Part shown: piece after piece, positions 47,835 to 63,207 of the stretch
Numbering within the stretch: position 1 is the stretch's first letter
Layout: each line of letters opens with the position of its first letter
Assembly: GCA_033648345.1 (NCBI GenBank)
Contig: GCA_033648345.1_4121.1
Length of the DNA: 64,000 bases
From: a phage
Direction: 5' to 3' (one strand)
Position numbers and translations under genes: made by a program
The notes under the pieces: generated by a model
The model's input: only the letters and a program-made list of their open reading frames with translations
The model's database searches: none
What the model was told of the DNA's origin: nothing

Positions 47835-47870
47835 AAAAATCCAGTACTATTATAGTACTGGATTAATTTT
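47835..47870. terminator. bidirectional terminator between convergent arrays
   Basis: ccagtac-N7-gtactgg hairpin flanked by A- and T-runs. Confidence 0.6.
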
Positions 47871-48993
47871 AATTATCTAAGCCACCAATTACACTGAACT
47901 GTGTGGTAACGTCTGAATTATTATCTATGTAAGTTCTTCTACCAACATAATATAGTTGTCCTTTAGCTTGAATAAAAGTTACGGTCCCTGTATTGAATGT
48001 TATAATATCATTGTATGTAATGTCAGGTGGTAGTGCTGCTGATAACGCAGTAACTTTACTTAATGCAGCACTAGCACTACCATTTATACCAGCAGCAATA
48101 CTACCAGTACCATAGAACTTATTATCTTTACCAATGAATACGTTGGCTGATGCTTGTGTAGCTGATGTTATTGCCTTACCAATTTGGAATGCGGTTCCTA
48201 TGGTGTATGGTGTGCTCCTGGCAGCGTCTATGCTTTGTGTATATCCATCCCCTAGCTGACCATTAACTTTGTCACCACATGAGTATAGAGTACCATTGTG
48301 GCTGTATATGATCCCACGGTTAGAGAAGCTAACAGCTTCTGCATTAGTCCATACTGGTGCGGTGTATGAGTTTACACGACTAGCGGTAGTTCCTAGACCT
48401 AGTATACCATATGTGTTATCACCACATCCAAACCATTGTCCAGAACTGTTTTGATAGAACACTGAACGTTCTGTTGATTCCATGCGTACAGCATCCACAG
48501 CACCACTTTTAACGAACGAAGTTGATGAGGATGTAGTACCAGTACCCAATGCACCATAAGTGTTTGTACCAATCGCATATATTGATCCTAGTGGTGTCAT
48601 AACACGTATGCAGTTATATCCCAATTGAACTTTACATTCAAATAGGTTGTCCCATATTTCAGGAACAGCAGAAAATAAATTTGTAATTTCGAACCATGAT
48701 GTTGTCGAACCAGTTAATCCTATACTGCTTTTGTTTCCTAAAATGAAAACAGTTTTGTCCTTCTTAATTATCCATGATGATAGGAAACCTATCTCACAGC
48801 TATGAACATTTGATTCTATTTGGGTAATATAATACTTAACTGTGTTATCACCCATGAATGCCGCAGCACCGGATGCAAAAAGGTTTCCAGTTTGTTTATT
48901 TAAAATGTAGTTATTGTTTCCATATACACTAACATCATAAGAACTTTCTTGTTTTTCGTTCCCATAATCAAATAACAATACGAAAGGTAACAT
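47869..48993 (-). CDS. RCC1-like repeat beta-propeller protein, array member 1
   Basis: MLPFVLLFDYGN N-terminus; repeats IYAIGTNTYGALGTGTT / WFGCGDNTYGILGLGTT / LYSCGDKVNGQLGDGYT. Confidence 0.75.
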   Translation of the reverse strand: MLPFVLLFDYGNEKQESSYDVSVYGNNNYILNKQTGNLFASGAAAFMGDNTVKYYITQIESNVHSCEIGFLSSWIIKKDKTVFILGNKSSIGLTGSTTSWFEITNLFSAVPEIWDNLFECKVQLGYNCIRVMTPLGSIYAIGTNTYGALGTGTTSSSTSFVKSGAVDAVRMESTERSVFYQNSSGQWFGCGDNTYGILGLGTTASRVNSYTAPVWTNAEAVSFSNRGIIYSHNGTLYSCGDKVNGQLGDGYTQSIDAARSTPYTIGTAFQIGKAITSATQASANVFIGKDNKFYGTGSIAAGINGSASAALSKVTALSAALPPDITYNDIITFNTGTVTFIQAKGQLYYVGRRTYIDNNSDVTTQFSVIGGLDN

Positions 48994-49070
48994 GATAAAA
49001 TCTCCTTGTGTTATACTTTATTTAATCATTTTATAATGTACAATTTTACAGCGATTTAATTGAGGTACTC

Positions 49071-49721
49071 ATGAATAAAAGAAGTAAGTTCTATCAAGAA
49101 TATTTCACTAAACAGAAACGATTCACAAAAAAATACTTTACATCATCCCACCGACCAGTTGCAAGTTACAAACGTCCTAATACTAACTATCTTACTGGTG
49201 GCAAGTTTAGTGCAAAGTTCGAATTACTTATGCGTGAAAAGAATATCAAGATGCATTACGCAGAGACGAGAAAAAACTCATCAATTATTTGTTCTGATTT
49301 TCTTGAGTACGGTTGCTTAACTTATAAATTCAATGATGTATATTTGTATATTGATGTTGATTGTAACAGTACTCTTATGTTTGAGATTTCAATTCACCCA
49401 AATCACAACCGTTATATAAACATTAACTTGATTGATAAAGTACTGATTGGTATATCTAGTACTGATGGTGGTGGATTTGAATTTATTGCTTCAAAATATG
49501 ATGAAGATTTCGTACTTTACCCAGTACTTGATGATGTGAAAGATATACTCAATTCATTAAAAGGAAGTCAATACAAATTATCTGAAGAACAGCTATTTCA
49601 GTACTCACTTATTCATGATGATATCGAGATATACTTAGAGTGTGCGAGAATATTGGAGTATCTTTATAATGAACTAACAACAACTGGTAAAGTGACAGCA
49701 TTCACATTATATAATATGTAA
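49071..49721 (+). CDS. hypothetical protein, EE-x-F-Q-Y-S motif family, embedded in minus-strand array
   Basis: ORF in track; SEEQLFQYSLIHDD. Confidence 0.55.
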   Translation: MNKRSKFYQEYFTKQKRFTKKYFTSSHRPVASYKRPNTNYLTGGKFSAKFELLMREKNIKMHYAETRKNSSIICSDFLEYGCLTYKFNDVYLYIDVDCNSTLMFEISIHPNHNRYININLIDKVLIGISSTDGGGFEFIASKYDEDFVLYPVLDDVKDILNSLKGSQYKLSEEQLFQYSLIHDDIEIYLECARILEYLYNELTTTGKVTAFTLYNM

Positions 49722-49728
49722 AAGAAAA

Positions 49729-60795: not shown

Positions 60796-60804
60796 GATTT
60801 TCTC

Positions 60805-61998
60805 CTATGATTGCCATAACTGCGTTGGCATTAATGTTAATGTTTTAATTAAGTAAGTACCATCCGGTAATTTACTACCTGAACCGTTAAAGCCCCCACA
60901 TGCATATAATTTATAATCTTTAGTTATAATTATTGTTCTGGACCAGTCTTTGGATGCCATAAGAACATTGTCATATCCACCCTGTATCGCACTTAAAGAA
61001 AACGCCCCCCACGAAGTAATTATTGTTGTATTTCCCGTCCCTTCTTGACCATATGTATTGATGCCTGCACTCCTGACATATGATGGGTATTGAGCCATAG
61101 GTGCACCAATTGTTGAGTTACCCATATTACTAGGACACAGGAAACCATCACTAATATTCACTATAACCTGTGAATTCTGAACTGTAGTTAATTGGTTTGT
61201 AGTTGAAGTAGTACCATTCCCAGCTTGTCCAGAATTGTTTCTACCACTCCAGTACACCCTACCGGCAGTAAACCACCAGGTAACATCATAAGTAGTACTT
61301 ATATAATCGACGTTGGTTCGTATTAATTTATTAGTAAAAACGTATGAGCTAGTCCCACCACCACTTTCACCAAAGTTATCCTTACCACAAAACCATGCTT
61401 CTTTATTTGTTTTGAGATAGTGCGTACCCTGTAATGAACACGCCAATTGAGAAACTTCACCCATACCAGTAACAACTGTTAGTACTGGAATGGGATTTTG
61501 GTTACCTGTTCCACATTCGGCATTTGCATTTTTACCACAAACAACGACTCTTCCATCGTGTAGTAATATTCTAGTACTTTCACCTATATGTACACTCTTG
61601 ATTAAATTAGCGTGTACATTTATTTTGTTAAATGCGGCAGTAACATCAGTCCATGTTCTAAAATAACCATTAACTGGAGTTGCATCTCCATAATCGGGGA
61701 ATGCTACTGTATTCCCTGTGAAATATATTCTATTATCCAAGTCAATCATCAATGATCCATGAACGCCTAACCAAAAGGCTGCACAGTGCGTTGCCAGTAC
61801 TGTAAAAGTTGAAACTGCCGATCGATTCCCTAGACCTAATTGGCTCAAGTTATTACCACCATAACCGTATAGTGTATTCGTGGGCTTATGTAGATACATA
61901 GCATTAGTATAATGTTGCTGTAAAACATCAGTGAACTCAACTGGATCAGGAATAGGCAGTTTATTCCCGTACTTAACCATTCTAGCAAAAGGTAACAT
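60805..61998 (-). CDS. RCC1-like repeat protein, array member 11 (close paralog of member 8)
   Basis: MLPFARMVKYGN; long stretches identical to member 8. Confidence 0.75.
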   Translation of the reverse strand: MLPFARMVKYGNKLPIPDPVEFTDVLQQHYTNAMYLHKPTNTLYGYGGNNLSQLGLGNRSAVSTFTVLATHCAAFWLGVHGSLMIDLDNRIYFTGNTVAFPDYGDATPVNGYFRTWTDVTAAFNKINVHANLIKSVHIGESTRILLHDGRVVVCGKNANAECGTGNQNPIPVLTVVTGMGEVSQLACSLQGTHYLKTNKEAWFCGKDNFGESGGGTSSYVFTNKLIRTNVDYISTTYDVTWWFTAGRVYWSGRNNSGQAGNGTTSTTNQLTTVQNSQVIVNISDGFLCPSNMGNSTIGAPMAQYPSYVRSAGINTYGQEGTGNTTIITSWGAFSLSAIQGGYDNVLMASKDWSRTIIITKDYKLYACGGFNGSGSKLPDGTYLIKTLTLMPTQLWQS

Positions 61999-62061
61999 AA
62001 TTCCCTCCTTTATTCATTATACTATATTTAATCAAAAAGAAAAGCCAGTACTCATTTAATT
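61999..62061 (-). promoter_or_regulatory. array cassette (half hairpin)
   Basis: tataat and aggagg conserved. Confidence 0.5.
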
Positions 62062-63207
62062 TTAACGAGGTATAACTATTTTTTTGAATAATCCAGTATT
62101 TCCTGCATTTTCTTCTTCATATGGAATTGTACCCATACCAGCAGTTCTGCCACCATTCCCTGAACCATACAGTTCTCCATTCTTAATCATGAATGTTATC
62201 ATATAACCATGTGTCATTTTATCATATGGAACTGGTTCAGTTATATTATTACATGCTCGCCATGTACTAATAACACTAGAGTTCGTTATACCATCACCTG
62301 ATGCGTTTCCTCGACCAGCGAAATACCATATCCCACCTGCTCTAACGTGTGCTTCATAATTAGAACCACCTATGTAATCAATCGCAGTACTAGGAATACT
62401 AGAAGCTGGTATCTTTGTGATTGTTCTAAGACTGTTAATAGTGCCATTAGTGCCATCACCCAACTGTCCATATATTTGTGAACCGAATACATATAGCCCA
62501 TCACTCTTTAATACGTAATTAGCACTATATGCATTTTCTGAATTTATCTGTAATACTCCAGTAGTAACAGTAGTCAATGTGGTAGTTGTACCAGTCGAAC
62601 CAATACTAGATTTTTTCCCACTGTACTTTAATGTTCCATCATTGTATAATACAAATGAAGCATTATCAGCGGTTACACCAATATCTTTAACATCAACTTC
62701 TGGTGTCAATGTCAGTACTGATACTCTTTGGTCAACAGCCCCAGTAAAAACTTCACCGTTGTTATTGTAACCCATCTTATATAATTTATTATCTATTGTT
62801 AATAATAATGTAACGCCGTTTCCTATAACTATTTTACTATATGTGTCATTCACATCATCAAAAATACCAAGTATTTCTGTCCATACACGATAAGTAGTAT
62901 TAACACCACGATAGATTTGAGCACCAGTACTCCACCATGTGCCATCATTTTTACGTACTAATATTCCGTGTGTATCACCAGTAGTCCAAAATTCCTTTAC
63001 ATCAGTTAAACATAAAACCCACTCTTCAACTATAGTAGGAGAACTACTACCAGTACCTAATTGATAGTAAAAATTATGCCCTCTGCCATATAATCTTCCG
63101 TCTTCTAATAAAATAAACACATTATTCTGTAAAACTTTTACCATCTTTATACCAACTGGCACAGGTGCTTCATTCCCACAATCGAACATTCTAACAAAAG
63201 GTAACAT
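62062..63207 (-). CDS. RCC1-like repeat protein, array member 12
   Basis: start at internal MLPFVRMFDCGN (63207); YGRGHNFYYQLGTGSS / FGSQIYGQLGDGTNGT. Confidence 0.75.
   Translation of the reverse strand: MLPFVRMFDCGNEAPVPVGIKMVKVLQNNVFILLEDGRLYGRGHNFYYQLGTGSSSPTIVEEWVLCLTDVKEFWTTGDTHGILVRKNDGTWWSTGAQIYRGVNTTYRVWTEILGIFDDVNDTYSKIVIGNGVTLLLTIDNKLYKMGYNNNGEVFTGAVDQRVSVLTLTPEVDVKDIGVTADNASFVLYNDGTLKYSGKKSSIGSTGTTTTLTTVTTGVLQINSENAYSANYVLKSDGLYVFGSQIYGQLGDGTNGTINSLRTITKIPASSIPSTAIDYIGGSNYEAHVRAGGIWYFAGRGNASGDGITNSSVISTWRACNNITEPVPYDKMTHGYMITFMIKNGELYGSGNGGRTAGMGTIPYEEENAGNTGLFKKIVIPR

Follow-up and report, generated by a model that had tools for sequence, protein, structure and literature searches.

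Why do a dozen phage proteins that have otherwise diverged widely begin with nearly the same twelve residues? The question is raised by a 64,000-nucleotide stretch of phage DNA (contig GCA_033648345.1_4121.1; this whole stretch is called the window below), in which a tandem array of minus-strand genes occupies positions 47869-63207. The encoded proteins are mostly ~370-450 aa long and match Pfam RCC1, RCC1_2 and WD40_RLD (RCC1-type matches in 9 of the 10 paralogs tested), and the pairwise identity of the 11 alignable paralogs is 19-28% overall. Megablast of the array assigned the source stretch to an Asteriusvirus-type jumbo coliphage (PBECO4/121Q/phAPEC6 group), with matches to 37 Escherichia and Salmonella phage records of 310-386 kb, including PBECO4, WPEC3, EC.P1 and EJP2, and a patchy similarity of 86-99%. 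The explanation that we favour, with somewhat more confidence than doubt, is that the leader, with the consensus M-[LI]-P-F-x-[RI]-[MIL]-x-x-Y-G-N, is a portable and retained N-terminal tag for the virion incorporation of unrelated beta-rich binding-type proteins in Rak2-like jumbo phages. No description of such a tag was found in the searched literature, and the genome papers of fEgEco12 and Sharanji are silent on the N-terminus.

A leader shared by diverged array genes

Twelve genes of the array start with MLPF[AV][RL][ML][VF][KD][YFC]GN. A six-frame scan of the window with a degenerate 36-nt leader pattern gave 12 matches, all on the minus strand and all at the start of an open reading frame (ORF), compared with 0 matches in 100 dinucleotide-preserving shuffles. 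In the alignment of the 11 paralogs, six of the ten invariant columns lie within residues 1-12 (M1, L2, P3, F4, G11 and N12). The initial annotation of this locus had proposed the narrower expression MLPF[AV]R[ML][VF][KD][YF]GN, which describes the shared leader of the 12 genes correctly except for one position in each of two members, namely L6 in the gene starting at 48993 (MLPFVLLFDYGN) and C10 in the gene starting at 63207 (MFDCGN). The two subtypes that it distinguished were recovered as described, ARMVK[YF]GN in five genes and V[RL][ML]FD[YC]GN in seven.

The leader on other genomes and other folds

RCC1 genes in five other Asteriusvirus arrays were located with a hidden Markov model (HMM) of the body only, and every intact one of them starts with MLPF.R...YGN, the RCC1-type ORFs without a leader being solely frameshift pieces or fragments. 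For the wider family, a strict DNA pattern scan of IMG/VR gave only two Asteriusvirus-like contigs, and a relaxed pattern was used to collect clusters of leader ORFs in ~10 contigs of 350-380 kb, a size class in which ~25 further ORFs carry the leader; single pattern matches in small IMG/VR contigs are probably due to chance or unrelated. Distant homologs found by body homology also keep this N-terminus (MIPFARMIQYGN, MIPFARIGVYGN, and, in Xanthomonas phage XaC1, MFPIPIISKYGN), and the motif was seen across phages of Escherichia, Pectobacterium, Erwinia, Serratia and Xanthomonas.

The cargo behind the leader differs far more than the array in the window would indicate, in line with the earlier proposal of a short conserved N-terminal leader on variable cargo. 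In a 350-kb metagenomic phage contig, the array reads RCC1-RCC1-X-RCC1, where X is a 247-aa Laminin_G_3/ConA-like protein starting with MLPFSTINQYGN (L009:9247; Laminin_G_3 score of 30.7 bits versus a gathering cut-off of 27.6), and another leader-bearing Laminin_G_3 protein scores 47.9 bits. Kelch propellers with the leader reach Pfam E values from 1e-16 to 1e-32, a Kelch-like member of the EJP2 array (tblastn match to a Kelch query) starts with MLPFVRMLEYGN, and one leader protein is an RCC1-Kelch fusion. Further cargo comprises a glycine-rich protein of 245 aa within a PBECO4-like array and two families of 168 and 223 aa. The leader thus occurs in at least six PHROG families (4219, 6011, 3545, 12615, 4474 and 6409), whose cargo is RCC1, Kelch, ConA-like/Laminin_G_3, glycine-rich and, in two cases, of unknown fold.

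Leader and cargo are separable, as homologs of the phrog_6011 cargo in ~150-kb Vequintavirinae carry no leader in the two cases whose N-termini were read, CR9 gp037 and PBES 02 gp096, which start with MNE(I/M)L. Sequence comparison suggests that cargo has been exchanged between very different phage groups. In the ~150-kb Vequintavirinae, the phrog_6011 cargo homologs are virion structural proteins. For phage CBB (region 18708-20029 of its contig), the depositors remark that CBB_536/537 are similar to a protein of 'Salmonella phage 19'.

No Pfam family was matched by the leader regions in hmmscan (E up to 10). Besides, a 185-aa protein starting with MVPFSVIEYYGN and carrying a PSHTH motif recurs in unrelated small IMG/VR contigs of 10-51 kb (L015, L016, L022, L023, L024 and L041). 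It matches Gp10_C, the C-terminal domain of the T4 baseplate protein gp10, at 23.7 bits, which is below the cut-off, and its leader-like start may have arisen by chance, or it may be distantly related to the tag and sit on a protein of the tail-fibre type. A resemblance of the leader to the tail-collar/MdpB N-terminus (PFxGEIRxFAGNFAP) was considered together with the MVPFSVIEYYGN likeness and found to be unsupported, the hmmscan of the leader regions being empty.

Leader proteins in virions

The initial annotation had likened the leader to the capsid-targeting sequence (CTS) of phage T4 and had suggested looking for processing after the leader in virion proteins. The T4 CTS is a propeptide, which the gp21 protease cleaves off once the protein has been directed to the scaffolding core (PMC9026906; PMC3012670). 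The presence of leader proteins in virions is borne out by published mass spectrometry of the phages phAPEC6 and CBB (PMC7247149, PMC5259590). For phAPEC6, gp003, 005, 006, 007, 009, 010, 549 and 551 were reported as ~30-41 kDa 'DNA condensation' proteins (PMC7247149 Table 1), and according to the phAPEC6 genome six of them (gp003, 005, 006, 007, 009 and 010) start with the leader and have agreeing masses. Among the detected gp003-gp010, the best coverage belongs to gp007, a truncated propeller of 269 aa. Two genes of the window are likely orthologs of proteins in this list, 53580..54755 of gp006 and 52706..53500 of gp007 (30.06 kDa), both detected in virions. In phage CBB (Mimasvirus), CBB_548-554, CBB_536/537 and CBB_247 all start with MLPF..[RI]...Y[GA]N, and eight of these ten proteins (CBB_247, 536, 537, 548, 549, 551, 552 and 553) were detected in the virion proteome (PMC5259590 Table 4). 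The RCC1-like GAP32_001 was likewise reported as a virion protein.

Processing after the leader did not hold up. The supplementary peptide list of CBB contains LFEYANVIIPPNYK, preceded by R and corresponding to residues 7-20 of CBB_536, and YANVIVEYATK, preceded by K and corresponding to residues 10-20 of CBB_548. Since these peptides span the junction of leader and cargo, the leader is retained in mature CBB particles. Moreover, neither a conserved Glu nor an (L/I)xE-type cleavage motif follows the leader.

Predicted structure of leader and cargo

Two AlphaFold2 models, one per subtype, are confident propellers with predicted template-modelling scores (pTM) of 0.84 and 0.88. The bodies are seven-bladed RCC1-like propellers, with UVR8, HERC1/2, RPGR and RCC1 as best matches in the Protein Data Bank (PDB) (Foldseek E ~1e-20, TM 0.7; PDB sequence/profile matches). 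In both models, residues 3-9/10 form a short helix with a predicted local distance difference test score (pLDDT) of 53-59, the next ten residues reach 65-68, and the first propeller strand begins at residue 20 with a pLDDT >85. As residues 1-19 lie outside the propeller, the leader is not a propeller strand in these models.

This bears on the idea that the N-terminus belongs to the RCC1 propeller itself, for instance as a ring-closing 'velcro' strand conserved for folding. RCC1-type propellers commonly close their ring with an N-terminal strand, the YGN of the leader loosely resembles the G-x-N of RCC1 repeats, and the paralogs share a C-terminal F-x-K-x-x-L-P strand. However, both models place the leader away from the propeller, albeit at low confidence, the same leader occurs on Kelch, Laminin_G_3, glycine-rich and other folds, and the truncated 269-aa propeller with its leader is still found in virions (PMC7247149). 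We rejected this explanation on the basis of the two models and the non-propeller cargo, and consider it extremely improbable.

The models suggest instead a peg that becomes ordered upon partner binding. Pro3 would start a two-turn helix (residues ~3-10) with F4, [MIL]7 and Y10 on one face, Gly11-Asn12 would end it, and a Pro-rich linker (often xAPxP) would keep it apart from the cargo.

With regard to the bodies, their database names 'regulator of chromosome condensation' and 'DNA condensation protein' were carried over from the fold. The eukaryotic proteins RCC1, HERC, RPGR and UVR8 share the seven-bladed RCC1-like propeller with the phage proteins; the latter, unlike eukaryotic RCC1, are virion components with an N-terminal tag, and there is no support for a Ran-GEF or chromatin function. 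Searches of the PDB by sequence and by fold yielded no solved phage structure that covers the RCC1 body or the glycine-rich and phrog_6011 cargoes.

Protein-level and DNA-level constraint

The initial annotation had left room for a module maintained at the DNA level and had pointed to the synonymous sites of the leader as a check. We compared the codons of 68 Asteriusvirus genes and of 54 leader-bearing genes from other genera, and the outcome differs between the two sets. In Asteriusvirus, the leader codons are near-fixed on codons disfavoured in the bodies. P3 is encoded by CCT in 67/68 leaders, compared with 31% in bodies (CCA 56%), and G11 by GGG in 53/65, compared with 12%; the corresponding values are 28/29 versus 31% for AAG at K9 (AAA 69% in bodies) and 67/68 versus 45% for TTA at L2. 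Judged from these counts, the codon fixation exceeds what protein-level selection explains.

In the other genera, by contrast, the residues are kept while the synonymous sites are free, also within single genomes. P3 is encoded by CCA (37), CCT (13), CCG (2) or CCC (2), G11 by GGT (22), GGG (16) or GGA (13), and Y10 by TAT (29) or TAC (25), while Ser5 is drawn from both TCN and AGY and Arg6 from both AGR and CGN. The 54 genes were collected through the motif itself, which leaves the codon data independent, whereas the residue conservation is not. The freedom of these synonymous sites indicates that protein-level selection is primary. Besides, among 70 distinct leaders M1 and P3 are invariant, F4, Y10, G11 and N12 are almost invariant, L or I occupies position 2, one of I, M and L occupies position 7, and positions 5 and 9 are free, which on alignment grounds is a protein-type pattern of conservation.

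These data were weighed against the explanation that the 36 nt are kept purely as nucleic acid, serving as a joint for recombination or gene conversion or in translation initiation, and that the peptide has no function. It would account for the near-fixed, non-preferred codons of Asteriusvirus, and for the decoupled leader alleles, the breakpoints at the leader and the identical upstream cassettes that are described below. It would not account for the free codon choice of the other genera, including both serine and both arginine families, for the persistence of the motif over phages of all the host genera named above and over six protein families, for the contrast between free and invariant positions, or for the leader in genes without a cassette. 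We therefore regard it as very unlikely. A DNA-level module does stand as a second layer in Asteriusvirus, on top of the protein-level selection seen in the other genera.

Recombination at the leader and the upstream cassette

Homology blocks shared with WPEC3, EC.P1, PBECO4, EJP2 and a 121Q-like contig start and stop at the leaders, with or without a cassette, and the gene order of the array varies between those phages. Leader alleles were compared between orthologs in divergent genomes whose bodies are 63-100% identical. Ortholog leaders differ from each other at a mean of 6.06/36 nt, unrelated paralogs within a genome at 5.46/36 nt, and the nearest non-orthologous leader of the same genome at 1.96/36 nt, often at 0. 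An EC.P1/EJP2 ortholog pair has 99.1% identity between nt 61 and the stop codon, yet shows 12 differences in the first 45 nt and unrelated sequence upstream. One and the same body carries four leaders, VRLFDYGN in the window, ARMVKYGN in the 121Q-like contig, GRIIRYGN in PBECO4 and VRMLEYGN in EJP2. It follows that the 'two subtypes' represent alleles of the leader which pass from body to body, and not protein lineages.

The initial annotation had also claimed that the conservation extends at the nucleotide level into an upstream cassette. This is true of five genes, which share an identical 28-nt promoter/ribosome-binding-site (RBS)-like sequence (5 exact copies versus 0 expected by chance). 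It does not apply to the genes starting at 60795, 58397, 57186 and 52310, which abut the previous gene, have no cassette and still keep the leader, so that the leader is not merely the tail of a promoter repeat. The cassette is preceded by a terminator-like hairpin, and terminator-like sites number 20 versus 7.2 expected. Sigma-70-like promoter sites are not enriched (70 versus 85.6 expected) and the cassette is absent among the listed matches, by which a consensus sigma-70 promoter was ruled out.

Judged from these comparisons, the array recombines at the leader, together with the cassette in those genes that have one. In Asteriusvirus, the 36 nt of the tag, with or without the terminator-promoter cassette, are the only sequence common to all cassettes, and the tag DNA acts as a homologous-recombination joint at which bodies, leaders and promoters are exchanged, duplicated and deleted, with the leader being homogenised within a genome.

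A related arrangement is that of the promoter-stem-loop (PeSL) mobile cassettes, which reportedly flank ORFs in T4-type hyperplastic regions (Repoila et al. 1994; Arbiol, Comeau and Krisch 2010). The array resembles them in its repeated terminator hairpin and promoter-like element between genes, with which the recombination joints coincide. Unlike in PeSL cassettes, the homology of the array runs 36 nt into the coding sequence, where it is under protein-level selection, the promoter-like element lies outside the sigma-70 consensus, and four genes lack the cassette.

Position on the particle

Gene context, fold type and published coverage lean towards a location of the leader proteins outside the capsid, in association with tail or fibres. 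The cargo folds are typical binding modules, and the leader stays unprocessed in phages that do possess a T4-type head protease. In Cronobacter phage CR9, the baseplate/tail-fibre cluster ends with the gene of an RCC1-like protein of 388 aa that starts with MFPIPALTLTGG. Pseudomonas phage HRDY3 has a 623-aa protein, annotated as a tail fibre and adjoining sheath genes, whose C-terminal third shares homology with the Laminin_G_3-like cargo of CBB_247. In phAPEC6, the coverage of the RCC1 proteins is similar to that of tail-fibre proteins (gp256 15.9%, gp314 13.0%) and unlike that of abundant head proteins. The main leader clusters of the window and of CBB lie outside the structural module, and CBB_247 lies within the structural region near portal, protease and baseplate genes. 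The literature search gave no paper that connects RCC1 with tail fibres; an 'RCC1' full-text match in a prasinovirus paper concerned the strain numbers of a culture collection and not a protein.

The T4 internal proteins are the closest reason to think otherwise, and the leader may be a true functional analogue of the CTS, which binds the scaffolding core and brings its cargo into the head, unprocessed, for injection as anti-defence or DNA-organising proteins. As in IPI, IPII, IPIII and Alt of T4, where a conserved N-terminus of 10-19 residues is the only element common to diverse proteins, the array combines a short conserved N-terminus, hypervariable cargo, a hyperplastic locus and particle targeting (PMC3012670, PMC9026906), and in both systems cassettes shuffle around conserved DNA that is made up of gene 5' ends and regulatory sequence. 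In addition, the leader proteins are virion-associated, these phages have a T4-type prohead protease, a scaffold and an inner body, and a T4 CTS mutant with Asp at position 10 targets without processing.

In contrast to the T4 leader, however, which is cleaved by gp21, the array leader has no (L/I)xE-type site behind it and is present in mature CBB virions. The T4 cargo consists of small basic proteins, whereas that of the array consists of 25-45 kDa propellers and lectin-like jelly rolls, which look like surface modules and would be awkward to pass through a tail tube. The T4 cargo is internal, whereas for the leader proteins indirect hints point to the outside of the capsid, including cargo relatives in tail-fibre contexts and the low, tail-fibre-like rather than abundant-head-like coverage in phAPEC6. 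The sequence of the T4 CTS is MKTYQEFIAE, to which MLPFxRxxxYGN bears no resemblance. On balance, we consider the CTS analogue unlikely, though less so than the other alternatives.

Anchors of receptor-binding proteins offer a second comparison. These are folded N-terminal domains of ~50-150 residues, usually in trimeric fibres or spikes, and separate tip adhesins such as T2/S16-type gp38 also exist. The array shares with them a conserved N-terminus joined to interchangeable, fast-evolving binding modules and recombination at the boundary of conserved and variable sequence; its cargo includes a glycine-rich protein, and one cargo type has a relative in the C-terminal domain of an annotated tail fibre. 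Unlike such anchors, the array anchor comprises 12 residues and a Pro-rich linker, the proteins are apparently globular monomers with at least six unrelated folds, and the attachment to fibres is putative.

Returning to the retained tag for virion incorporation, we propose that the leader helix would bind a conserved structural protein at a shared site, most likely on the exterior of the particle (tail, fibre or 'hair' apparatus), so that each phage would display a variable set of binding modules, which may serve as adhesins. Both phAPEC6 and CBB carry unexplained hair-like appendages (PMC7247149; PMC5259590), and a link of the leader proteins to these structures is speculation. A more far-reaching version, which we put forward tentatively and hold to be somewhat less probable than its negation, is that of a universal, uncleaved 12-residue 'address tag' which plugs unrelated binding modules into one docking site, perhaps on the hairy tail or capsid appendages, and whose DNA is also a shuffling joint.

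Several observations weigh against the retained tag. In phAPEC6, gp003-gp010 gave 1-4 peptides and 3-17% coverage, by which loose co-purification is not fully excluded. Retention was seen in two proteins of CBB and in no Asteriusvirus, by means of tryptic peptides in which residues 1-6 are unobserved. For HRDY3 and CR9, the names 'tail fiber' and 'tail protein' were assigned by the depositors and are backed by gene neighbourhood alone. The leader helix is predicted at low confidence (pLDDT 53-59), and its helical hydrophobic moment exceeds the strand moment, yet not significantly when compared with shuffles. Finally, the tag is not uniform, as 5/6 RCC1 paralogs of Serratia phage BF (L004) start with MLPFPIIS[NS]x and lack YGN. 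Judged from this phage, conservation seems to be stronger in the N-terminal half of the tag. At the same BF locus, one RCC1 paralog and a 221-aa non-RCC1 protein keep the full MLPF...YGN.

Genes and neighbouring features of the array

Table 1. Array genes and repeated elements in the window (leader or element sequence as encoded on the strand given).
Feature	Coordinates	Strand	Leader ATG	Leader coordinates	Sequence	Remarks
13th RCC1-like array gene	63278..64000	-				5' end beyond the window, start outside view
Terminator-like hairpin, intergenic	63252..63270	-			GCCAGTAC-NNN-GTACTGGC, then T-run	precedes cassette; further copies of the family at 56052-56070, 50936-50954, 49729-49747, 54798-54822, 59582-59611, 47838-47864
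28-nt promoter/RBS-like cassette	63212..63239	-			TTAAATATAGTATAATGAATAAAGGAGG	identical copies at 62004-62031, 56012-56039, 54760-54787, 50896-50923
RCC1-like propeller gene, 381 aa	62062..63207	-	63207	63172-63207	MLPFVRMFDCGN	V-type; AlphaFold2 pLDDT 88.9, helix 3-9 pLDDT ~53
RCC1-like gene, 397 aa	60805..61998	-	61998	61963-61998	MLPFARMVKYGN	A-type
RCC1-like gene, 393 aa	59614..60795	-	60795	60760-60795	MLPFVRMFDYGN	abuts upstream gene, no promoter cassette
RCC1-like gene, 376 aa from leader ATG	58408..59538	-	59538	59503-59538	MLPFVRMFDYGN	upstream sequence unlike common cassette
RCC1-like gene, 400 aa	57195..58397	-	58397	58362-58397	MLPFARMVKFGN	no cassette
RCC1-like gene, 369 aa from leader ATG	56077..57186	-	57186	57151-57186	MLPFVRLFDYGN	no cassette
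Frameshifted RCC1-like gene	54827..56006	-	56006		MLPFVRLFDYGN	leader ORF 55827-56006, 59 aa; body in other frame 54827-55903
RCC1-like gene, 391 aa from leader ATG	53580..54755	-	54755	54720-54755	MLPFARMVKYGN	AlphaFold2 pLDDT 79, helix 3-10 pLDDT ~59
Truncated RCC1-like gene, 264 aa	52706..53500	-	53500	53465-53500	MLPFARMVKYGN	remnant fragments 52321-52640
RCC1-family paralog, 449 aa	50961..52310	-	52310	52275-52310	MLPFVRLFDYGN	no Pfam match, matches body HMM; no cassette
RCC1-like gene, 378 aa	49754..50890	-	50890	50855-50890	MLPFARMVKYGN
RCC1-like gene, 374 aa, last of array	47869..48993	-	48993	48958-48993	MLPFVLLFDYGN

The frameshifted paralog (Table 1) is disrupted near 55880 (…LYMRG / GNQSAKMGVTG…), and the identical disruption occurs in EC.P1, PBECO4 and WPEC3. 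Either a pseudogene has been inherited, or the gene has to be read with a frameshift. The truncated form of the 52706..53500 paralog is also kept in WPEC3, the 121Q-like contig and phAPEC6. The RCC1 paralogs of the window share a loose C-terminal motif, F/M-x-K-[IVM]-x-L-P, right before the stop codon (e.g. 56077-56110, 53580-53610 and 62062-62095), which is the last strand according to AlphaFold2 and is far more weakly conserved than the N-terminal leader.

Between the last two genes of the array lies a plus-strand ORF of 216 aa (49071-49721; phrog_34359, function unassigned, no Pfam match), followed by a bidirectional hairpin at 49729-49747, and the same ORF is found at the same place in EC.P1 and WPEC3. 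Beyond the array, seven tandem paralogous ORFs of 104-123 aa occupy 45394-47833 on the plus strand. Their sequences look like those of multi-pass membrane proteins, and they converge on the RCC1 array with the bidirectional hairpin 47838-47864 in between. CBB has the same layout, with a ~771-nt gene, an array of annotated 'membrane protein' paralogs and then the leader cluster on the opposite strand.

This neighbourhood brings in a further explanation, in which the leader is read during assembly, either by a shared chaperone or assembly factor or as an amphipathic membrane-targeting helix that acts with the adjacent small membrane proteins. It would fit the short, possibly amphipathic helix of the models and the position of the leader cluster next to the membrane-protein-like array, which is the same in CBB. 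However, the proteins still carry the leader once they are in virions, the CBB membrane-protein paralogs CBB_539, 540, 541 and 543 are all absent from the listed CBB virion proteome, and the chaperone is hypothetical. We thus consider a reader that acts during assembly quite unlikely, and continue to favour a tag that stays on the virion protein.

Implications

We class the tag among the modular virion-incorporation signals. If this is true, the 10-17 paralogs per Asteriusvirus genome that are mis-annotated as chromosome-condensation regulators become a virion-borne repertoire of binding modules. A simple prediction rule would follow, by which a protein starting with MLPF..R...YGN is expected to be a virion protein; it already picks 8/55 proteins of the CBB virion proteome. 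The tag would also offer a testable explanation for the hairy appendages of phAPEC6 and CBB, or else for the contents of the inner body, and a tag of 12-20 residues could be used to load or display foreign proteins on 350-kb phages.

One sequence would be under dual constraint, as a protein docking signal and as a DNA recombination joint, in parallel to the internal-protein locus of the T-even phages and without its proteolysis. If so, a single element would couple virion assembly with the evolvability of host interaction.

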